From positions 20,679 to 84,678 of the forward strand of contig JAISFC010000023.1 in NCBI GenBank assembly GCA_031263785.1: a stretch of 64,000 nt of DNA, read 5' to 3'. The position numbers and the translations under genes were made by a program. The stretch comes from Clostridiales bacterium (GTDB taxonomy: Bacteria; Bacillota; Clostridia; Monoglobales; WRBX01). Shown in pieces: positions 20,674-63,646 of the stretch (positions are counted from its first letter, which is position 1; each line of letters opens with the position of its first letter). Below the pieces are notes generated by a model that saw nothing but the letters and a program-made list of their open reading frames with translations, was not told the DNA's origin and ran no database searches.

Positions 20674-21565
20674 CCCTCACCATCCCCTTCCTCAAACTCA
20701 CCCTAAAACCATCGGGCATCTCAATTATCTTGCCGCCGTAATTTTTCGCTATCATCTCAATGCACGCGTCCACGCGCTCCAGCTGAATCGTCCGCTCTGT
20801 CGACGGCTTAATCAACATCTGCAAAACCCGCCGTTTAATCGCCTTATGTAGGCTATTGAACCAATTTGCGCTGAATTCACCCTCACGCACATTTTCACAC
20901 ATCAGCCGCGCGACCTCCGCCCGCAGAAAATCCTCTTCCTCACGCAAAATTCCGCTCGCCCGCCCCAACGCCTCCAGCCCCGCGTTTTCGTAAATTATCG
21001 GCATAATCTCATGGCGCACCTTGTTGCGGAAAAACTGAGTATCATCATTGGTCTCGTCGCGTAAATATTCAATCGAATTTTCCCTGCAATACTCTTCAAT
21101 TTCCGCCCTCGGCATGTCGATAATCGGGCGAACAACCCGCGTCCCCGCCAGCTCACGGGACCTTATTCCGCAAAGCCCCGCCCTGCCGCTCCCCCGCAAA
21201 AGGTGCATGATAACGCTCTCAGCGCTGTCGTTCGCGTTGTGCGCGGTGGCGATAATTCCGCCGTTTTCACGCGCTATTTCCACAAAAAACTCATATCTAA
21301 GCAGCCGCCCCGCCGTCTCCGTCGAAATCTTATGTTCATGCGCATATGCCTGCACATCCTCGCTGCGCACCCTGCACTCCACGCCCAGCTTATCGCAGGT
21401 TTCCCGCACAAAAAGCGCGTCGGCACCGCTATTTGCGCGCAGCCTATGGTCAAAATGCGCCGCCACAACCTCGCAGCCGCGCCAATCCTCCAGCTCACCC
21501 CGCGCCAGCTTGTGCAACATGCAAATCGAATCCGCGCCCCCCGAAACCCCTGCAATAATCCGCAT
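20654..21565 (-). CDS. tilS: tRNA(Ile)-lysidine synthetase
   Basis: PP-loop AGVSGGADS at the N-terminus and HNANDSAE. The start ATG overlaps the dnaB stop (TAATG). Confidence 0.88.
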   Translation of the reverse strand: MRIIAGVSGGADSICMLHKLARGELEDWRGCEVVAAHFDHRLRANSGADALFVRETCDKLGVECRVRSEDVQAYAHEHKISTETAGRLLRYEFFVEIARENGGIIATAHNANDSAESVIMHLLRGSGRAGLCGIRSRELAGTRVVRPIIDMPRAEIEEYCRENSIEYLRDETNDDTQFFRNKVRHEIMPIIYENAGLEALGRASGILREEEDFLRAEVARLMCENVREGEFSANWFNSLHKAIKRRVLQMLIKPSTERTIQLERVDACIEMIAKNYGGKIIEMPDGFRVSLRKGMVRVDNCDR

Positions 21566-29670: not shown

Positions 29671-32926
<3,256 letters not shown>

Positions 32927-33002
32927 GTTTTCGCTTCCTCCTTTGTAAATTTAAAAATCTTATTGACTGTACTGTATCATAAAAAAACAGTCACGTGGGA
33001 TT

Positions 33003-33046
33003 TGTAACACAAATGTAATATAATTGTAACATAATTGTAATATTTC
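33003..33046. promoter_or_regulatory. Four tandem 11-bp-phased TGTAAY repeats upstream of LRR paralog 1
   Basis: tgtaacacaaa|tgtaatataat|tgtaacataat|tgtaatatttc. Nearly identical arrays occur at 56453-56496 and 63603-63646, and a related one at 42470-42513. Confidence 0.6.
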
Positions 33047-40500: not shown

Positions 40501-42312
40501 GCCTACCCAGCCCGTTGCCGACGTCCAATATTCCCAGCGGTCTATATACATTCCGCCGGGGGTTGACGGCGCGTAGAGCGTGCCGCCTACCGTTTTAGAG
40601 CCCGTGATTTCGCCCAATGTGCCGGAAATAGGCTTTAAGTCAGCCGCCGTAATCGGACCGTACGAGTTGGTCATTTTCGCGTTCCCTGTATATGCCGAAA
40701 ACACATTGTACTTGACGGAAAAATATTTGCCCACATCGCTTGCCGTCGTCGTGTATGTGCTCAAGAAGTTGGATGTGCCCACCCAGCCCGTTGCCTGCGT
40801 CCAATATTCCCAGCGTTCTATGTACATGCCCGTTGGGGCGGTTGGCGCGTAGAGTGTGCCGCCCACGGTTTTAGAACCCGTAATCTCACCTAAGCTCCCC
40901 GAAGCCGCCTGTTGAGTCTTTGTAATCGGTCCGACCTGCGCCGTGTATACAGGACCTCCCGTGTACCCCGTAATTGCGTCGTAACGCACCCTAAAGTAGT
41001 AGCCCACTTGTGACGCTGTCGGGGTGTAAGTCGAGCCTACCGCACCGGCATAACTCCACGCACCGCTCGACGATGTTTTATATTCCCACCATGTAATACT
41101 TCCTCCTGTCGGGTTGCTCGGCGCGCGTAACGTATTTCCGTATTGCAAGCTTGAATACGTTATGTTCCCCGGCGTTCCTATAGATTTACTTTGCGTCGTA
41201 ATCGGTCCCACCGGCGCTGTGTATACGGGTCCGCCTGTATATCCCGAGGTTGCGTCGTAGCGCACCCTAAAATAGTAGCCCCCTTGTGACGATGTCGGCG
41301 AGTACGTTGATGCGTTTGAGCCTATTGAGTACCACGTGCCGCCCGACGACGTTGCATATTCCCATTGCGTACGGCTCCCGCCAGTCGGATTGCTCGGCGC
41401 ATATAACACAGCGCTGCCGATTTGCAAGCTTGAATATGTTATGTTCGCAGGCGTCCCGATACTTTTACTTTGCGCCGTAATCGGTCCCACCTGCGCCGTG
41501 TATACAGGTCCGCCCGAATATCCCGAAATCGCGTCGTAGCGCACTCTGAAGTAATGTCCTACTTGCGTTGCTGACGGCGTGTACGATGCACCGACGTTGC
41601 CCATAGAATACCACGTGCCGCTGGACGACATTTTATATTCCCACTGTGTGCGGCTCCCTCCCGTCGGGTTGCTCGGCGCATATAACGCGTTGCCGTATTG
41701 CAGGCTGGAATATGTTATATTTCCCGGCGTCCCCATAGTCTGGGTTGATGACGACGTTCCCTTAATGCCCGGGAAATAAGGCGACGAAATAGTCCCGTTG
41801 CCCTTTGACCCCACCTCGTAAGCGGGCACCGAAGCCGATACGCTCTCATTATACGCAAGCGTAGAGCTGTTGAAAACCGTTGGGGACGTGCTGTATACCT
41901 GCTTGTACGCGCTCCCCACGCCGTAGCCTATTCCACCGTAGTAATTCTGCCAGCCCGCGTAAGTATAATGCGCGTTCACTCCATAGACGGTCGTACCTTT
42001 AGGCACGTAGCCGGACGAAGAACAATACCTTAGCTGATTTTCATACGCCGAAAAAGCCAAGCCGGCAACTCCAATCTGTTCACCGACCTCAGATTGATAC
42101 ACCGTTATCTTGACCAGCGAATACTTTGAAGCATCGCTATTGGTGAAATCTTCATTGATGAAAAATTTTCCGCTAAAATCGGTAGGAACCGCTTGCGCCG
42201 AGTCCAAGTACATAGAAGAATCGTCAAGCGCAGGAAAAAACTGCAAGATGCTCGTCATCATAAAAGAAAACAATAAGCAAAGCGTTAAGGTCTTCTTTAA
42301 CATAAAAACCAC
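37531..42312 (-). CDS. Giant SLH-anchored cell-surface protein with about a dozen tandem modules of roughly 90 aa
   Basis: Signal peptide. Repeated modules such as [40 protein letters not shown]...YTP...[23 protein letters not shown] long (PSPT)n linker, a Listeria-Bacteroides-type repeat ([14 protein letters not shown]...FAGWF), three [13 protein letters not shown] repeats, and C-terminal SLH domains ([17 protein letters not shown].., [17 protein letters not shown]..). Confidence 0.85.
38175..38320 (-). repeat. Three tandem 48-nt coding repeats ([13 protein letters not shown])
   Basis: Near-identical 48-nt units are visible in the sequence. Confidence 0.8.
38770..39040 (-). repeat. 12-nt tandem coding repeat array encoding a (PSPT)n linker
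   Basis: GGTGTCGGACTC/GGTGTCGGGCTT-type units are repeated across about 270 nt. This array generates several spurious Arg/Trp/Cys-rich ORFs in other frames. Confidence 0.9.
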
Positions 42313-42469
42313 ACCCTTTTTAATTTTCTACAATATATAACCTGCATTAATTACCTATAAATGGGCGAATCGTCCGTCCCCGCCCGCGAAAGGAAAAATG
42401 TTCCGTGAAAATATATCACCATTCCTCCCTACTTTATATTATAAGGGAAATAATTCCTTAAAGGGGCAA

Positions 42470-42513
42470 TGTAACACAAATTTAATAGTTTTGTAACATA
42501 AATGTAACATTTT
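42470..42513. promoter_or_regulatory. 11-bp-phased TGTAAC repeat array between the XRE regulator gene and the SLH protein gene
   Basis: tgtaacacaaa|tttaatagttt|tgtaacataaa|tgtaacatttt. Confidence 0.55.
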
Positions 42514-42635
42514 GAGCCGTGGATTATAAACGGACGTATTACAAAAAAGCGCTTATTATAAGCGATTTCAAGCAATGACGGAATTAAATTTCTACCAAAA
42601 TTACAGTTGAAAAGCTGCACCGTACCGGAGCATGT

Positions 42636-42878
42636 TCATACCAACTCTTGTTCTAAATTTTCAAAGACTTCATCCGCAAAAAATTCGATTAACGATATCT
42701 CTAAGCCGTCGCATAGCTTTTTGATGGTCGCTATCGTAGTGCTGTTGTTGCGCCCGCTAACGACATTATTAATCGTGGACTGCGTCACACCGCTAAGCGT
42801 CCCCAATTTGTTTATCGTTATCCGCTTGCTCGCGCAAAGAGCCAATATTCTTCGCCTTACCGCTTCCCCTGCATTCAT
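42636..42878 (-). CDS. XRE/Cro-C1 family helix-turn-helix transcriptional regulator
   Basis: RRRILALCASKRITINKLGTLSGVTQSTINNVVSGRNNSTTIATIKKLCDGLEISLIEFF is a typical HTH_3 sequence. The alternative start is 42896. Confidence 0.85.
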   Translation of the reverse strand: MNAGEAVRRRILALCASKRITINKLGTLSGVTQSTINNVVSGRNNSTTIATIKKLCDGLEISLIEFFADEVFENLEQELV

Positions 42879-43267
42879 ATTATCACATCCTACCATTAAT
42901 TTTAACCTTATACAGCTAAAAAACTTACCTCTTTTAGGTTGACTTGTCGGATATTCGATGTTTTGAGTAACTTAAAAGCGAACGCGGCTCATTTATTCCA
43001 CTCTTTTTCTTGCCGTATCACCTTCTCTCCTAAAAATATAAAACGCAAATTAACCCCATAAATAAGGGGTTTTTGCATATTTCCGTTATTCAAAATTTTT
43101 TTGATGTAATGGTTTTTTCGGCAAATAAAAAAAATGCAACACATTGAAGCATTAATTCATAAAAAAACTTATGTTCAGATTACGCAAAAATTTCCCAATA
43201 TTTTTCACCTTGCGCCGCACTCGCCGTCCATATCCACTCTGCAATCCGCCGGACGACTATTTTTCGA

Positions 43268-43303
43268 GCAAAAAAAGGAGCGAAAGTGATGTACTCCCGC
43301 TCC
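43268..43303 (-). terminator. Rho-independent terminator of the 506-aa orphan gene
   Basis: On the minus strand, GGAGCG, a 15-nt loop, CGCUCC, then UUUUUUUG, located 19 nt after the stop codon. Confidence 0.65.
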
Positions 43304-43321
43304 ATGAATTCGTTTGATTTA

Positions 43322-44842
43322 TCAGCCGCGCCCGTTCTGTTGCCCGCCAATCGGACGTTCCCCTACATCGCGATTCGGATTAGGCGCACCCTTTCTTTTC
43401 TCAAACTCTTCTATCGCAGTTTGCAATGCGGCAATCGTGCTTAATGCTTGCCCTTTTTCATTCGCAAGCGCTAAAGTTTTAACTGTATCGCTACACAATA
43501 TACTACTAGTGACGCGGTTTTTCCCAAAGCTTGAGTTTCCAAACATACATTCTCTAACGGTTTTTTCGCCTGTAAGCGTAATCCCGCGGAACGACACAGA
43601 GTTCTCGTAGCCACTATCCACATACTCCAAATTACCAAATAATTGCCTGTATTTTTCACCGAGAAAATCTAAAGGGTCCCGGTCTCTTGCATCCCGATCT
43701 TTTGCCCACTCTTTTGCGATGGCGTCAATAGCTGTTTTTTGCTCGTTCGCCGTAAGAACGCCAAACCCTTTTATCTCTTCAAAGCAAATCTGAACCGCGC
43801 GTTCTCTATCCGCCAACGAAATGGCAACTTCTTTTTGTGGAATTCCCGCTTTTTTAGCTGCTTCCAATAAATGCTTGCCATAATCTTTTAGTCTCCAAGA
43901 ATCAACACCAATCTGATATGCTTCTCCTCTTCCCGAACCTCTTATATCCGCGCCATCTTCCATAAGCGCATCTGCGAGCATTTCAGTTAATGTTTCTTTT
44001 TCTTCGGGCGTTTCAAACTTAACGCCTTGTATGTCGGAATTATAACCCATCTCATAATAATCCAAGAAATGCTTAGCTCTATCGTACACTATTTCATAAT
44101 GCTGCCCGCCTTTGCGCGAAACACCGAACCTTTGCATATTTGAAGCAAGCGCATCGCGCGCCAAATCTGTGCCATGACCATCAATCCCATGACCGTCATA
44201 CTTAACTTTTTTCAACGCAGTCGTTATTGCCATTTCTTTATAAATCGGGTGTATATCGCCTAATTTGGCGCACACTTTGTCCACATCTTCTCTTATGCTA
44301 TTTTCAATACGGTTCACAAACTCCGTTGCCCGCGCTCGCAAGTCCTCCATGAAATCTCGTTCCAAATCGATGCGATCATTCCACTCCGGCTGAAAAGAAA
44401 GCGCATTCTTATTTTCGTATTCACATAGCTCCTTTAAGCCAATGTCCGCATAGTTTTCAGCAACCGCAGGGCATCTCGTGTGTATGCGTTCTTTGATATA
44501 GTCCCTAACCTCTTTATTGAGGTCATCAATGCCTTTTTGGATTTTGTCGGCAATCTCATTTTCATTCCAACCTATTGAATAAGTAATGGTATTCGTCCTT
44601 TTATCGCGTTGAAATTTAGCCTCTGCCAATTCACTAAACCAAACTAGATCCCGCTTTCCGTTGGCGTCGTTCTCCACATAGTAGCGCTTTTTTTTAAGCA
44701 CCTCACCCACCGCAGGCGGAACTTTTCCAGCATGTTTTTTTAGAAAACGGTCAATAATCTCCGTTACAAGCTTCTCGCCATCTTCAATGGCGGCGCTTAA
44801 AATTTTGTCGTCATTCGGTACGTCTCCTGTCATTTTTATCAT
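43322..44842 (-). CDS. Hypothetical cytoplasmic protein (506 aa), no recognisable domain
   Basis: Long ORF. ATG 44842 (MIKMTGDVPNDDK) follows GAAGGGAG. No signal peptide or TM helix. Flanked by A/T-rich non-coding DNA. Confidence 0.6.
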   Translation of the reverse strand: MIKMTGDVPNDDKILSAAIEDGEKLVTEIIDRFLKKHAGKVPPAVGEVLKKKRYYVENDANGKRDLVWFSELAEAKFQRDKRTNTITYSIGWNENEIADKIQKGIDDLNKEVRDYIKERIHTRCPAVAENYADIGLKELCEYENKNALSFQPEWNDRIDLERDFMEDLRARATEFVNRIENSIREDVDKVCAKLGDIHPIYKEMAITTALKKVKYDGHGIDGHGTDLARDALASNMQRFGVSRKGGQHYEIVYDRAKHFLDYYEMGYNSDIQGVKFETPEEKETLTEMLADALMEDGADIRGSGRGEAYQIGVDSWRLKDYGKHLLEAAKKAGIPQKEVAISLADRERAVQICFEEIKGFGVLTANEQKTAIDAIAKEWAKDRDARDRDPLDFLGEKYRQLFGNLEYVDSGYENSVSFRGITLTGEKTVRECMFGNSSFGKNRVTSSILCSDTVKTLALANEKGQALSTIAALQTAIEEFEKRKGAPNPNRDVGERPIGGQQNGRG

Positions 44843-44918
44843 GATAATCGCGCTCCCTTCGCAAAATGTAATTCCACTCCCGCGTATATAAAAACAATAT
44901 ATCATCAGCGGAAGACAC

Positions 44919-44942
44919 TATCAAAAAGTGTAGGTTTTGATA
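44919..44942. repeat. Left lox-like site: TATCAAAA-AGTGTAGG-TTTTGATA
   Basis: 8-bp palindromic arms around an 8-bp asymmetric core. The partner site at 45128-45151 has the core inverted. Confidence 0.85.
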
Positions 44943-45127
44943 AAAGCGCATTAAAGAAAAGCGATTGCGGATTTATCCCTTAAAATCGCAATCGGGACAA
45001 AAAAATAAGAAAAAATACATTTTCTTTACAGAAATTTAACATAACTTTAACATTTTGGCATTGACAACGGATTTTAAAGGGCGTATAATTAAATATAGAA
45101 AGGTAAATTTTGTAATTTTTTGTAAAC
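44943..45127. other. Candidate invertible promoter segment (inverton), currently oriented away from the 506-aa gene
   Basis: 185 bp bounded by the two inverted sites. It contains TTGACA-17-TATAAT on the plus strand. Confidence 0.6.
45061..45089 (+). promoter_or_regulatory. Perfect consensus sigma-A promoter inside the IR-flanked segment
   Basis: TTGACA at 45061-45066, an exact 17-nt spacer, and TATAAT at 45084-45089. It is preceded by tttaacataac|tttaacatttt (45035-45056). Confidence 0.7.
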
Positions 45128-45151
45128 TATCAAAACCTACACTTTTTGACA
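45128..45151. repeat. Right lox-like site: TATCAAAA-CCTACACT-TTTTGACA
   Basis: The core is the exact reverse complement of the left core. One arm mismatch (C for T). Confidence 0.85.
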
Positions 45152-45394
45152 GTTGTTTTTTTGTCTTGCTTACTCGCAATTCCGCCAAACGCATGTAAAA
45201 AGTGGCAATTTTTAAGTTTATTCGCTGTAATAATTATTCGAGTGTCGGATTTTTGGATACAGAAAAGGCGCTTATAGGAATTCCCCACAAGCGCTTTAAT
45301 TTTAATTCAATTTTGTTTGTCTATGTCAATTTTTTTCGCTCGTCTTGCTGCAACGCTATATTTCGCGCTGCTTAAATAATAATTCGGATGCGAA

Positions 45395-46054
45395 TCACAC
45401 GGATTTATCCCGCTCCGCGCTTGTTTCTTTTTTGAATTCCCGATAGGAATAAACCGCTGTCACGATAAGCCCAGCTGTCATAACCGACAAGGGCAATATA
45501 AAGTTCAACGGCGCGGGAATCAATGCGCCGAGAATGAATACAACGCCGCTTATGACAAACACATATCCGCCGAATTTGTGCGTTTTTACCCAGACATTTT
45601 CGCTGGCAAGCGTCCACGGGAGCCTGAGTCCCACGGAATAATTTTGCTTTACCTTTGGCATATAACTGCCCATTAAAACAAACATTAGCCCTATAATCAG
45701 CGGTATAATCACATTAACGGGCATCGATATCCCAAAAGAAGCGGCTAACACTATTGCCATAACTATCGTCATCAAAACAGCGACGGACACCTGCGTTATA
45801 GGCAGCAACGCCGATTTTTCCACGTTTTTTCCTTTGGGGTCAATTTTGGGCAACGCCTGTATGAGGAGCGTAAATAAAAGCGTGAAAGCGGGGAAGATAA
45901 ATAGCGTCCATGTTGCCGAAAACCCGTTAATATTGCCTGCCGCGTCCCAATGCGAGGGTATTAAATCAGGAAGATAGCGATACAAAATCGCCGCCGCAAC
46001 CAATTGAGCAAGCGCGATTGCGATGCAAAAAATAAAAATTTTTCGATTTTTCAT
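45395..46054 (-). CDS. SdpI/YhfL-family membrane protein (DUF1648 plus SdpI-like)
   Basis: LPDLIPSHWDAAGNINGF (DUF1648-type) and multiple TM helices. ATG 46054 follows AAGGAGG. Confidence 0.65.
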   Translation of the reverse strand: MKNRKIFIFCIAIALAQLVAAAILYRYLPDLIPSHWDAAGNINGFSATWTLFIFPAFTLLFTLLIQALPKIDPKGKNVEKSALLPITQVSVAVLMTIVMAIVLAASFGISMPVNVIIPLIIGLMFVLMGSYMPKVKQNYSVGLRLPWTLASENVWVKTHKFGGYVFVISGVVFILGALIPAPLNFILPLSVMTAGLIVTAVYSYREFKKETSAERDKSV

Positions 46055-46107
46055 GATTTTTAGCCTCCTTTTCAAATGAAATCACACGTATGCTAAATAT
46101 AGCTTTA

Positions 46108-46773
46108 TTATCTTTTTCCTCTGCATTCAAAGCCTAATAACGCGCCCTTTTCCCACGTGTCAATTTTGGTAAAATATTGCTCTAATGTCGCTGTCAGTTC
46201 CGCTTTTGTCTTATATGGAGGCGTGGTAAACTTCATTCTCGTGTAGATTTGTTTTATGAAAAAGTCGCTCATTTTGCGCGCTCCCTTAATGTACGAGCAC
46301 CCGACTAAATCGCCCCCGGTTTTAAGCGTCCGCATAATTTCACGGATGGACTGCTCTTTTTCAGGGAAACACGGCAGCCCGTTCATGCACAAAACCATGT
46401 CAAAATCACCGTCCGCAAACGGCATATTCGCAACATCGCCCTGCTGCAATTTGACAGCCGCACCGGCTTCATCGTACGCCTCTTTCGCCTTATCAAGCAT
46501 GCCTTGCGAGTAATCAAGCCCGGTTATATCGGCATTTTTCATCCTCGCGTATTTATTCTTTGTGAATAGCCCCGTGCCGACGGGAACATCAAGTAGCCTG
46601 CCGCTGAAATTATCGTCCAAATTGTCAACAACGCGCTCCTCAATATAGCTCGCGTCCTTCATCCCCCAAACCATGGAGGTGACAAGGGTCGACCATAGCG
46701 ACTTGCCCGACAGTGTTTTGTTATACAAACTAGCCTTTTTAGTATACGCCTTGCCCACCTTGTCGATTCTCAT
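46108..46773 (-). CDS. Class I SAM-dependent methyltransferase
   Basis: [12 protein letters not shown] (motif I), [11 protein letters not shown], and [14 protein letters not shown]. Its start overlaps the ybjQ-like stop (ATGA). Confidence 0.8.
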
Positions 46774-47090
46774 GATTCAACGACAACCGCCGTTCCGCTC
46801 GCCGTCACCATAAGCATGTTGCCTTGCCCCAATACCTCATAGTCGATATCCACCCCGACGACGGCATTCGCGCCTATTTGACCCGCTCGCTGCTCCAGCT
46901 CCTTCAGGGCGTTTTCTCTCGCGTCAATCAGCTCGCCTTCGTAAGAACCACTTCGACCGCCGAAAAAGTTTGTCAACCCCGCGGCAAAATCCTTAACAAA
47001 ATTCACGCCGTTGACAACCTCGCCAAAGACAATCCCCTTATATTCCTTAATTACTTTCCCCTCAATTTGAGGTGTTGTCGTTATAATCAT
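46770..47090 (-). CDS. YbjQ/UPF0145 family protein
   Basis: [26 protein letters not shown]...[10 protein letters not shown]...[30 protein letters not shown]. Confidence 0.85.
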
Positions 47091-47138
47091 TGATTTCGTC
47101 TCCTTTATCCAAATTTTTTCCGCCTGTCCGTTTTTTGG

Positions 47139-50100
47139 CTACCTGCTCATTATTAAATCCGCGTTGCTCAGCACCGATTTTGTAAAGTTCAATTCCTGCG
47201 CCGCTAAAATCATGCTCCCCGCGGTTTTCGTGACCAGTAGCTCTGGCGCCAAATCGTTAGTGGTTTTTTTCAATCGGAATCTTGTGCGGTCCAGCGCGTC
47301 GCCGTCCCTCAAAATGTGCGCCATCTCCATGAGCCTTTCCTTCCGCTCCGGAGAAATGCCCTCAAGCTGCGCATTTAACAGCTCTTCAATCTTGCTCGCG
47401 GGGTCCAAAGAATGCGCCTCAATTATAAACATAATTTCCCTAACCTCGCCATCGGAAAAACCCGAACTGACCATTTCCCGATATTTTTTTGCGCCCACCG
47501 CCCCGTGGTCCTCATTCGCGTCGTTGTGAACCCTGCCGATATCATGATATTTCGCCGCCTCCACGATAATCCTCACATCATCGTCCGAAAGCCCCTCATT
47601 TTTGGCAATGTAATACGAAAAAACCGTCACATTATCCGCGTGCGTCTTGCCGTGTATCCCCTTTAAATAAAATTTATCGTCGATATTCTCGCTCAATTCT
47701 TCGTTGAACCACTCAAATCCCGTCTTGCCCTCAAACTCCTTTATGCCACAAATCACGTCGCCCATGTTTTTCTGCTTGCAAATATCACCGTAATTCTGCA
47801 TTTTTATCGAGAGACTATTGTATGGGTCCGTGAATTCCCGTCCGTAGTCCCTTTGGAAAATCTTGCTGTACATGCTAACGGCTTCCTCCGCCTTCCGCGC
47901 CGCAAGGAACTCGCGAATCCCCCTTAAACTCGTCAACTCCGCGCTTTCAGACGTCGTGGGCGAATCTTCCGCGAGACGAGCCGTCAATCCAACGCGCTCA
48001 ATGCTCTGCTTAGCCATCGTTTTCTTATCCAGCCGACTTTGCGATATGTAATCAATTGTATTCTCAAAAGTACGCATACTTTCTTCGGAACCTCGGGCTT
48101 TAACGGCTTTATAAAGCTGTTCCGCCCTTCGCGGTATGTCCGAGCGTTTCAGGAAAGCGTCGCCGTCAGGACGATTATTGTGCATCCAAGCGTACCCGCT
48201 ACAATATGAGGTAAGCAGCAGCAAATAATCCTCCGTAAGCGCCGGCGTTATTTCCCCCTCGGCGATAATTTTTTCAAGCTCCGTGATTTTTTGCCTGTGC
48301 TTCATCTTATACTTCCTCGCGTCTATCTTGACAATCGGCAACGCAGGGTCAAACGCCTTTGCCGCCTTCCTTTGCGCGTTCGTAATCGTGCCGTTGAAAC
48401 ATAACACACAATTCGGCATAATCCGCTCCCCGCTCTCCGCCTCGCGGTACAACACATACTCGTTATGATAGTGCAACGTTCTTTTCGCCGTTTCGTCGGA
48501 AGTCATGCACTCATAAGTCGTCGCCGTTACATTTCTGTTGTTCAGCCCGTAAGCCCCCGACGCGCTGGAACGCAAGTCGGTCGGACCGGACATAACATAC
48601 ATATCAGGCGTAAAATTAACAAATCCCAGCCTGATACTGCCTTCCGTTTCGCCGTACTCCGAAACATGCCCCAAAAAATTATTATTCACCAAACAGGCGC
48701 AAAGATATGCACTGCCCCGCTCGCGAGTTGTGAAGTCCGAGATTTTCGCGCCGCTCCCGCACCCGTTAAGCGTGTGCACAATCATGGAAAAGTCCTGACC
48801 GTTCAGCTCAATAACCTTCAGCCCGGACTTTGAATCAATTGTATTATGAAGCGTATGTATGTCTATCATGGACTTTTTAAGCTCAGCCCCGTACAATTTT
48901 TTTAATTCCTTCTTAAAATCGCAGAATTGACCGTTAATTTCGTCCAGCCAGTTGTCCGTCAACGCCGCGTTGCTGAGCAGCTGCTTATTTAATTTTATAG
49001 CTAATTCCTTGAGCAATTCCTTGTCCCGGCATTCTTCGATTTTTGATAAAATGTCCGTAAACAACGTGAAATATTTTATTTTATCGGCATACTCCGCGCC
49101 CAATTTTCCGCCCAAATCCTTCAACTTTTTTATGCTCGCAATTCTAAGCAAAATTTCCGATATCTTTTCCGGCGGAGTGCAGCAGAGAATAGAATAAATG
49201 CTCCGTTTAATCTCAAAAATATCATCCGAATTTATAAGCTTGCTATTTTTTATGTGCGCCAAATACGGCAACATACGCAAATCATGTACGCTATTGACTT
49301 CATATGTTTTCTCCGAATTAAACAGCTTTTTAAGCATAAAAAAATCGTACTTGAAAACATCGGACTCCATAAGCTCGCCTATAAGCTGCTGATAGTCCGC
49401 GCAACCGTTGATTACCTTCTGGAATAGAGACAAATTAAACGAATCCTTGGGCATCCCGTTGATTTCCTTCAGCTTTTCAAATATACGGAGCGCGGCTTCA
49501 AGCTTGCCGGTTTCATAAAGCTCGTTCAGTTTCAGGGTCTTTTTCGGGACCTCCAAATATTTTATTATGCTGTAAACGTTTTTCTCGCCAATTAATAAGG
49601 TAACCGCCGGGTTGAGCAGCGCGCCGTTTTGCATGCTGAAAACGATATTGCCCAGTTTTTTATACACGTCCTTGACAAACGTCGTTTTGGGGATATTGAG
49701 CAAATTATACAGCTTCCCCGCGTACTTCCCCGTGTGTATTCCGCCTGATTCAGCTAAAAGATGCGGCAGAATACTCACATCCGCCCCGCTGAATTTCGGA
49801 CGTTCAACGGGATTGACAATGCCCAAAAATAAATCCATCCGCAGCTGAAAACTTGCCCCCTTAATAAGATTGGGATTCTCGTTTATCAGCGCGGTCAAGC
49901 CTTTTTTATCCTGCAAAAATTTCCGCGTACAATAATATAGAAGATAATCATTCGATTTCGCCGCGATATTCATCAAGCTGAAATTATCCTTCAAATGCTC
50001 GGGTATATTCTTATATTCCGCCCCGTCCTTCGTTAAAACCTTCTTCAAAATCGAAATTTCATTCTTAAATCTGTCCCCGATTGCGTTCACAAACGAATTA

Positions 50101-52733: not shown

Positions 52734-56375
<3,642 letters not shown>

Positions 56376-56452
56376 GGTTCCTCTTCCTTCCCTTGTAAAT
56401 TTAAAAATCTTATTGACTGTACTGTATCACAAAAAAACAGTCTCGTGGGATT

Positions 56453-56496
56453 TGTAACACAAATATAATATAATTGTAACATAATTGTAATATTTC
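56453..56496. promoter_or_regulatory. 11-bp-phased TGTAAY array upstream of LRR paralog 2
   Basis: tgtaacacaaa|tataatataat|tgtaacataat|tgtaatatttc. Confidence 0.6.
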
Positions 56497-58013: not shown

Positions 58014-58091
58014 GGTGGGTATAGCTCAATTGGTTAGAGCGCTAGATTGTGGTTCTAGAGGTTGTCGGTTCGAGACCGATTATCCACCCCA
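58014..58091 (+). tRNA. tRNA-His (anticodon GUG) with encoded G-1 and 3' CCA
   Basis: Hand-folded. G-1, then acceptor stem GUGGGUA/UAUCCAC, D arm GCUC-AAUUGGUUA-GAGC, anticodon arm CUAGA-UUGUGGU-UCUAG, T arm GUCGG-UUCGAGA-CCGAU, discriminator C73 pairing with G-1, and CCA. Confidence 0.9.
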
Positions 58092-58833: not shown

Positions 58834-63524
<4,691 letters not shown>

Positions 63525-63602
63525 GTTTTCGACTTCCTCTCTTTGTAAATTTAAAAATCTTATTGACTGTACTGTATCATAAAAAAACAGTCACATGGGA
63601 TT

Positions 63603-63646
63603 TGTAACACAAATGTAATATAATTGTAACATAATTGTAATATTCC
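63603..63646. promoter_or_regulatory. 11-bp-phased TGTAAY array upstream of LRR paralog 3
   Basis: tgtaacacaaa|tgtaatataat|tgtaacataat|tgtaatattcc. Confidence 0.6.

Follow-up and report, generated by a model that had tools for sequence, protein, structure and literature searches.

The 64,000-nt stretch of contig JAISFC010000023.1 from a Clostridiales bacterium (contig positions 20,679 to 84,678; hereafter the window) contains a gene of 506 aa whose start is preceded by a short segment that carries a consensus promoter and is bounded by inverted repeats. The question raised by this locus is whether the segment is a switch inverted by a site-specific recombinase, to which class that recombinase would belong, and whether the switch still works. 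We consider it very likely that the feature is, or derives from, a promoter inverton of the small serine invertase type, and likely that this inverton has been orphaned through decay of its own invertase gene to the last 24 codons; that the window copy still flips has roughly even chances. The kind of switch, an invertible-promoter flip-switch, is already known, and the window copy is a further case.

Organization of the repeat-bounded segment

A repeat search finds inverted arms at 44917–44942 and 45128–45153, each of 26 nt, complementary at 25/26 positions (96%) and separated by 185 nt, in agreement with the site sequences and coordinates described in an earlier reading made from the letters alone (the sequence-only reading). 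When TATCAAAA-N8-TTTTGATA is sought with up to two mismatches, just two matches are found in the window, both of them the arms, for a chance expectation of 0.04, and none of 100 shuffles contains two matches. The 26-bp site can be parsed in a hix-like manner as a 12-bp half, a 2-bp core and a second 12-bp half, CTATCAAAAAGT-GT-AGGTTTTGATAG. No target-site duplication flanks the segment in the window sequence. The central features are as follows, in window coordinates; L numbers denote loci on other contigs.

43322–44842, minus strand: cargo gene of 506 aa, monocistronic, with ribosome-binding site GGGAG and ATG at 44842
44918–44943: distal (target-side) crossover site CTATCAAAAAGT-GT-AGGTTTTGATAA, 26 bp, 25/26 to sites adjoining serine invertase genes (L029, L007 and others)
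44944–45126: interior of the invertible segment, 183 bp between the re-parsed sites; by blastn against L002–L007 the sites alone match and the interior is unique to the locus
45061–45089, plus strand: consensus sigma-70 promoter TTGACA-17-TATAAT inside the segment, 12/12, the best promoter-like site in 42000–47500
45127–45152: proximal (invertase-side) crossover site CTATCAAAACCT-AC-ACTTTTTGACAG, 26 bp, inverted relative to the distal site and with the same GT/AC core
45159–45230, minus strand: remnant of the cassette's serine invertase gene, its last 24 codons (LQRINLKIATFYMRLAELRVSKTK), profile positions 178–201 of 201

The promoter stands as the sequence-only reading proposed it. It lies on the plus strand and the neighbouring genes are all on the minus strand, and it is therefore aimed away from the 506-aa gene; the proposed invertible-promoter architecture facing away from that gene is likewise borne out, with relatives that carry the same site in both orientations. 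Read along the minus strand, the order is an operon, a terminator (45294–45268), the repeat-bounded segment, the 506-aa gene and this gene's own terminator (43303–43277). The upstream minus-strand operon, which encodes an HD-domain protein, YbjQ, a methyltransferase and an SdpI-like protein, ends at 45395.

The crossover sites adjoin small serine recombinase genes in other contigs

A scan of public metagenome contigs for the shared 22-mer returned six (L002–L007) with an identical or near-identical 26-bp site. In blastn comparisons of these contigs with the window just 25–30 bp of the site match and the surroundings are unrelated. This marks the site as a functional sequence that is conserved and multicopy, and the unit as something other than a miniature inverted-repeat transposable element (MITE). 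The site is found again in L005/L029 and L007, where it lies against the 3' end of a gene whose protein product, of ~200 aa, has a Resolvase catalytic domain (PF00239, E 6.5e-28). This protein has at least 7999 relatives at E<1e-30, some of them named 'DNA invertase Pin-like' by the Joint Genome Institute (JGI); the top 120 listed are 71–100% identical and come from metagenome-assembled genomes (MAGs) labelled Oscillospiraceae, Defluviitaleaceae, Desulfovibrio and Synergistaceae. A higher-termite gut compartment is the origin of at least one source metagenome, 3300010369 (PMC7800795).

We read the gene contexts of six members of this invertase family (L019–L035) and found a recurring module in which the invertase gene is followed by a 26-bp site at or just after its stop codon, a segment of 98–213 bp, a second 26-bp site in inverted orientation and the start of a target gene. 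Each of these cassettes has its own site variant. Wherever, in the loci read, a recombinase gene adjoins the site or a variant of it, that gene encodes a small serine recombinase (Pfam Resolvase) and never a tyrosine recombinase. The sequence-only reading had divided the sites into 8-bp arms around an 8-bp core and assigned them to the loxP/FRT type. That assignment does not hold, as the partners are small serine recombinases and conservation follows a 12-2-12 pattern; the 8-8-8 division is another cut of the same 26-mer.

Alignment of 20 sites, or 40 half-sites, from the window and L002–L029 gives the half-site consensus C-T-R-T-C-A-A-A-A-N-S-T, in which T2, C5, A7, A8 and T12 are invariant. 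The central dinucleotide is non-palindromic in every site pair, being GT, or CT in L027 and AG in L031. Each window site has one deviation from the canonical 26-mer, a G at half-site position 3 (proximal site) and a T at position 1, and each of these bases is found in 9/40 family half-sites. Every invariant family position is intact in both window sites and their core dinucleotide is identical; judged by these positions, both look competent for recombination.

The best promoter faces the invertase (OFF) in L029, L025, L027, L031 and L034, as it does in the window, and the target (ON) in L019 and L026; L004, which has no adjacent invertase, is also in the ON orientation. Most invertase-linked relatives are thus assembled OFF, and the OFF orientation of the window is typical. 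We speculate that OFF-state antisense transcription into the invertase gene provides orientation-dependent control. The relatives' cargo includes SLH, LRR and RCC1 surface proteins, a lipoprotein, a multi-pass membrane protein, glycosyltransferase and ABC-transporter operons, and a nonribosomal peptide synthetase (NRPS)-like gene.

Paralogous cassettes occur in pairs in metagenome 3300010162 and in assembly ERZ27257297, both carrying the label Oscillospiraceae MAG (P0012, P0062). Two paralogous cassettes of one metagenome (L019–L024) lie beside phage-like genes, with sheath, tube and M15 peptidase genes upstream of one and SPP1 portal and major capsid genes downstream of the other, so a location in prophages or tailocin-like regions is possible for some cassettes. 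The site pattern has no match in viral contigs, and in genome contigs (a set of representatives without the window's MAG) it gives 11 matches, all single and unpaired, in unrelated taxa, Elizabethkingia and Bacillus thuringiensis among them.

A remnant of an invertase gene beside the proximal site

We built a family profile from 120 invertase family members and searched it against all 2533 six-frame segments of the window. The best of these, at E 0.017 (the runner-up has E 1.7), is the 24-codon segment next to the proximal site; it lies on the predicted strand, at the predicted position and offset, and ends 6 nt from the site. Its DNA is identical at 19/21 positions to that of L005 at the same offset from the site. 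It has no start codon and a stop codon lies just upstream, so the cassette's own invertase gene appears to have been deleted down to its last 24 codons. With the remnant included, the minus strand of the window reproduces the module order of invertase position, proximal site, segment, distal site and target gene. The sequence-only reading had stated that no recombinase gene is visible in the window, which holds for an intact gene and fails for this remnant of a serine invertase beside the right site. Ten mid-sized open reading frames (ORFs) of the window are, by Pfam, housekeeping genes (DnaB, PP-loop ATPase, U32 peptidase and others) or, in 3/10, have no match; none is a recombinase.

With its own invertase reduced to a stub the switch would be orphaned, and flipping would come only from a paralogous invertase of the same site specificity, of the P0002 or L007 type. 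The window site type adjoins the P0002/L029 and L007 invertases and also occurs without an adjacent invertase (L002 and L004), which makes action in trans plausible; the window switch might then be served by a paralogous invertase elsewhere in the genome. An invertase adjoining a CTATCAAAAAGTGTAGGTTTTGATAG site elsewhere in the MAG would favour this. The locus offers a concrete case of an inverton that has probably outlived its own invertase gene, and the corrected enzyme class (a serine invertase with hix-like 12-2-12 sites) changes both what should be sought in the genome and how the switch might be engineered or assayed.

Inversion in relatives of the cassette

The serine-invertase cassette family inverts, and inversion is seen in two pairs of relatives. 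L025 and L026 derive from two samples of one study and have an identical invertase (P0110), and the 109-bp segment of one is the exact reverse complement of the other's. At its invertase-side junction L026 is recombinant, combining the outer half-site of the L025 proximal site with the inner half-site of the L025 distal site, which places the crossover between site positions 10 and 22. At 1129–1312 (compared with 3117–3280 of L025) the L026 contig leaves the invertase gene across the recombinant junction and the flipped segment and returns over the unflipped junction into the reverse complement of the invertase gene. An assembler produces such a foldback contig when both orientations are present, and this suggests that both were present in one sample.

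The second pair, L003 and L004, are homologous polysaccharide/ABC-transporter loci with homologous leaders and first genes (an ABC-2-type transporter). Their segments match at 132/179 positions in reverse complement versus 107/179 in the same orientation, and the TTGACA-17-TATAAT promoter faces the operon in L004 and faces away in L003. At 230–300 of L003 the operon-side site is perfect and its partner is not recognizable at the expected position, the segment being homologous to those of L002 and L004; L003 may be a locked-OFF derivative. In L002 (200–570) the TTGACA-17-TATAAT promoter lies between two divergent glycosyltransferase-led regions whose leaders continue as inverted repeats of each other for ~57 nt past the 26-bp site, and this inverton is predicted to be a toggle between two operons and not an ON/OFF switch. 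The contigs of L005, L006, L030, L033 and L035 end at, or a few nt from, a site, an observation that is suggestive of inversion and no stronger because a near-palindrome can also break assemblies.

Given the consensus of the 26-bp site and the cassette architecture, invertons of this family can be located in the genomes of termite-gut and other anaerobes even where read data are lacking.

Proposed action of the switch and transcription signals around it

In the mechanism that we propose, an invertase dimer would bind each 26-bp site through its two 12-bp half-sites flanking the 2-bp GT core, and the two sites would synapse. All four strands would be cut at the GT core with a 2-nt stagger, as the chemistry of small serine recombinases predicts, and rotation of half of the tetramer by 180 degrees followed by religation would invert the segment. 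In the OFF state, as assembled, the promoter at 45061–45089 would drive a transcript of ~200 nt that crosses the invertase-side site, then the invertase remnant, and stops at the terminator (45268–45294). After inversion (ON) it would read through the left site into the 506-aa gene with a leader of ~135 nt. We infer these ON and OFF effects on transcription, the cleavage at GT and trans-activation of the window copy. The further transcription signals are the following.

43277–43303, minus strand: terminator-like hairpin right after the cargo stop codon
44896–44924, minus strand: junction promoter candidate TTGATA-17-TGaTATATT, –35 at 44924–44919, –10 at 44901–44896, with TG extension, 10/12
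44962–44994, minus strand: hairpin followed by CUUUUCUUU, –12.4 kcal/mol, z –1.05, i.e. like shuffled sequence
45268–45294, both strands: bidirectional terminator hairpin; minus strand –17.8 kcal/mol (z –4.2), plus strand –13.2 kcal/mol (z –2.9)

The hairpin that the sequence-only reading had noted near 45266–45300 is real and corresponds to the last of these. It is the predicted terminator of the upstream minus-strand operon and probably also ends the OFF-state plus-strand transcript. The hairpin at 44962–44994 is possibly a weak read-through terminator that would insulate the cargo in the OFF state. Its loop contains a 12-nt sequence, CGGATTTATCCC (44968–44979), that recurs as an exact direct repeat at 45400–45411, in the 3' end of the SdpI-like gene; this may be coincidence, the rough chance estimate being ~0.1 in 2 kb. 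In an Rfam scan of the whole window at gathering thresholds the single match is a tRNA at 58015–58088, and a permissive scan of 44700–45450 gives matches at chance level and nothing more; the OFF-state transcript therefore belongs to no known RNA family.

The view that the 506-aa gene has no other recognizable promoter has to be given up in light of the candidate at the left junction. Its –35 element sits in the outer half of the left site and the promoter is therefore unaffected by inversion. If active, it would give basal, switch-independent expression of the cargo, and a bound invertase would occlude it.

The 506-aa protein

The sources agree on the call of the cargo ORF (506 aa), and it is 100% conserved in a second assembly. 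Searches against Pfam, PADLOC and PHROGs give nothing usable, and both a word-indexed search of 5.8 billion clustered proteins and an exhaustive HMMER search of 1.84 billion representatives return the protein itself alone. A single-sequence AlphaFold model is of low confidence (predicted local distance difference test score, pLDDT, of 39) and mostly helical, and there is no similarity to the 510-aa cargo of L027. By these searches the protein appears to be a true ORFan. The sequence-only reading had called it a target without a recognized domain and unusual as inverton cargo; both points are upheld, since it has no Pfam family and the relatives mostly have surface or polysaccharide targets. 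The lack of any detectable homologue among these 1.84 billion representatives makes it a rare example of an ORFan governed by a dedicated phase-variation device.

Is the switch still active, and could the segment be something else?

Several observations weigh against a working promoter inverton at this locus. Neither tblastn nor the family profile finds an intact serine recombinase in the 64-kb window. The flipped form of the locus was not found: contigs with the identical cargo or the identical upstream methyltransferase are just two Logan contigs of SRR14710921 (L001 and L036), neither of them flipped, and a single orientation is common to them and the window. The breakpoints of the Logan assembly, 45025 and 45546, lie away from the sites. 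The relatives mostly control surface proteins or polysaccharide loci, and a soluble-looking ORFan is therefore atypical cargo. Finally, with a reasonable constitutive promoter at the left junction, the cargo might not need the switch. A rival account is that the switch is a fossil, its invertase lost and its segment locked OFF, with the 506-aa gene transcribed, if at all, from the junction promoter and the consensus promoter giving a dead-end transcript of ~200 nt. The reduction of the invertase gene to 24 codons without a start, the shared orientation of both assemblies, an inversion-proof junction promoter with a 10/12 match and a TG extension, and the single deviation of each site from the canonical 26-mer all favour such a loss of function. 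On the other hand, both deviations are at positions that vary in active-looking relatives, and the invariant positions and core are intact; L002 and L004 are invertons with perfect sites and no adjacent invertase, and two paralogous cassettes are present in each of 3300010162 and ERZ27257297. A single orientation in two assemblies carries little weight, since OFF is also the assembled state of many relatives whose invertase is intact. We put the chance of a locked switch a little short of even.

Accounts that dispense with a serine invertase altogether fare much worse. Sites of the loxP/FRT kind, with 8-bp arms, an 8-bp asymmetric core and a tyrosine recombinase encoded elsewhere, would suit the palindromic arms, the central 8 bp that are exact reverse complements and the lack of an intact recombinase of any type in the window; such sites are nevertheless very improbable given the serine recombinases that adjoin the site wherever a recombinase does, the conservation across 12-bp half-sites with an invariant T12 flanking the 2-bp centre, and the serine invertase origin of the remnant beside the right site. 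We give equally little credence to the arms as two operators of a dimeric transcription factor that flank divergent promoters with no DNA rearrangement. Both sites are indeed imperfect palindromes; the left overlaps the junction promoter's –35, and the right lies at about +32 to +57 from the inferred start of the consensus-promoter transcript, but the non-palindromic centre is kept 8/8 in inverted orientation, the same 26-mer adjoins invertase genes elsewhere, and relatives show inversion. A bound invertase might still act secondarily as a repressor. The least probable account is a MITE-like multicopy element with terminal inverted repeats and no relation to the neighbouring genes, an outcome that the sequence-only reading had named as one that would count against a switch. 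Although the 26-bp ends recur in multiple copies in related metagenomes, most loci differ entirely in their interiors and match the window at the sites alone, the window copy has no target-site duplication, and many loci have the element in a fixed place, after an invertase gene and just before the start of a target gene.

A broader proposal, which we regard as rather unlikely as a whole, is that the unit of small serine invertase, site, promoter and site is a self-contained, horizontally mobile 'plug-in' cassette for phase variation, of which the window would be an orphan end state, served in trans and driving a lineage-specific ORFan with a possibly costly function such as antiphage defence. 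It fits the 70–84% identity of invertases across MAGs labelled Oscillospiraceae, Defluviitaleaceae, Desulfovibrio and Synergistaceae, the presence of the identical 26-mer in contigs of 35–50% G+C, and the placement of the cassette before arbitrary genes.

Relation to known recombination systems

The sites of the Din family (hix, gix, cix and pix) are 26 bp long with 12+2+12 organization, are inverted, and undergo strand exchange at the two central bases (PMC3241671 Table 3; PMC3798978). The window cassette resembles Hin/hix of Salmonella and the other Din systems (Gin, Cin and Pin) in its small serine recombinase, its two inverted 26-bp 12+2+12 sites and the re-orientation of a promoter, and 9/12 positions of the window half-site AGGTTTTGATAG agree with the conserved hix half GGTTTTTGATAA. 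Compared with individual Din sites the window site has 13–16/26 identities, and its core is GT where those of Din are AA or GA. In contrast to Hin, the cassette invertase is encoded outside the segment with its 3' end against a site, and segments are 98–213 bp rather than ~1 kb. The catalytic domain of the invertase matches Sin (2r0q) at E 1e-27, the gamma-delta/Tn3 resolvases at 1e-17 and Gin at about 4e-15 to 5e-15, and the C-terminal DNA-binding region alone has no significant match among solved structures in the PDB, including the Hin DNA-binding domain (1IJW). Membership in the Din subfamily is thus not supported by sequence, the catalytic domain being nearer to Sin than to Gin and the C-terminus lacking a PDB match.

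The structure of Sin (2r0q) is the closest solved homologue of the cassette invertase, which is also 50–55% identical to 'recombinase family protein' genes of Bacillus and Staphylococcus plasmids. On Firmicutes plasmids the Sin and beta recombinases mainly resolve dimers, using res sites that are directly repeated and have accessory subsites, whereas here single 26-bp sites in inverted orientation flank a promoter. The Mpi and capsular-polysaccharide invertons of Bacteroides fragilis, and PhaseFinder-type invertons in general, are alike in having short invertible promoters before surface or polysaccharide genes, and the Mpi regulon is alike in that one site type is common to several loci, some without an adjacent invertase (here L002–L004 and L006). 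They differ in their inverted-repeat motif and host lineage, and most cassettes here carry their own invertase and site variant. Invertons are documented in the class Clostridia (PMC11892184); the site motif was not found in two supplementary files of that paper, which is weak evidence that the motif is undescribed. Cre/loxP and FLP/FRT share palindromic arms around an asymmetric centre and the inversion of DNA between inverted sites, but use a tyrosine recombinase with 13-bp arms, an 8-bp spacer and a 6–8 bp stagger, compared with a serine recombinase and 12-2-12 conservation here. The RADS small serine recombinases that mark antiphage defence genes (PMC13552941) are likewise found beside variable cargo genes; the authors of that study speculate that inversion might regulate cargo, and their founding case is co-transcribed with its cargo, no inverton being described. 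The window cargo differs in having no PADLOC match.

Other signs of phase variation and neighbouring genes

Three perfect (GA)n tracts are present on the minus strand at 32860–32905, 56301–56354 and 63454–63504, with 23, 27 and 25.5 units respectively. Each lies a few nt after a conserved start, ACATGAAAAAAC, of a large surface-protein gene (ORFs of 1081, 1213 and 1517 aa), and the three genes have common internal repeats of ~72 nt. The conserved ATG is in frame with the long ORF for the 1213-aa gene alone, and the other two need +1 or –1 GA unit. The tracts look like slipped-strand phase-variation switches, of which one would be ON and two OFF. A conserved element of ~110 nt with about four 11-nt TGTTACAAnnn repeats (33002–33043, 42470–42514, 56452–56493 and 63602–63643) precedes all four large surface-protein genes, including that of a 1593-aa SLH protein just downstream of the cargo, and may be a common regulator-binding array plus promoter. 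Between the cargo gene and the gene of the 1593-aa SLH protein lies a gene for an 86-aa HTH_3/Xre-type regulator (42636–42896, minus strand), which has weak PADLOC matches to HTH components (RmrA and capH) and PHROG matches to repressors.

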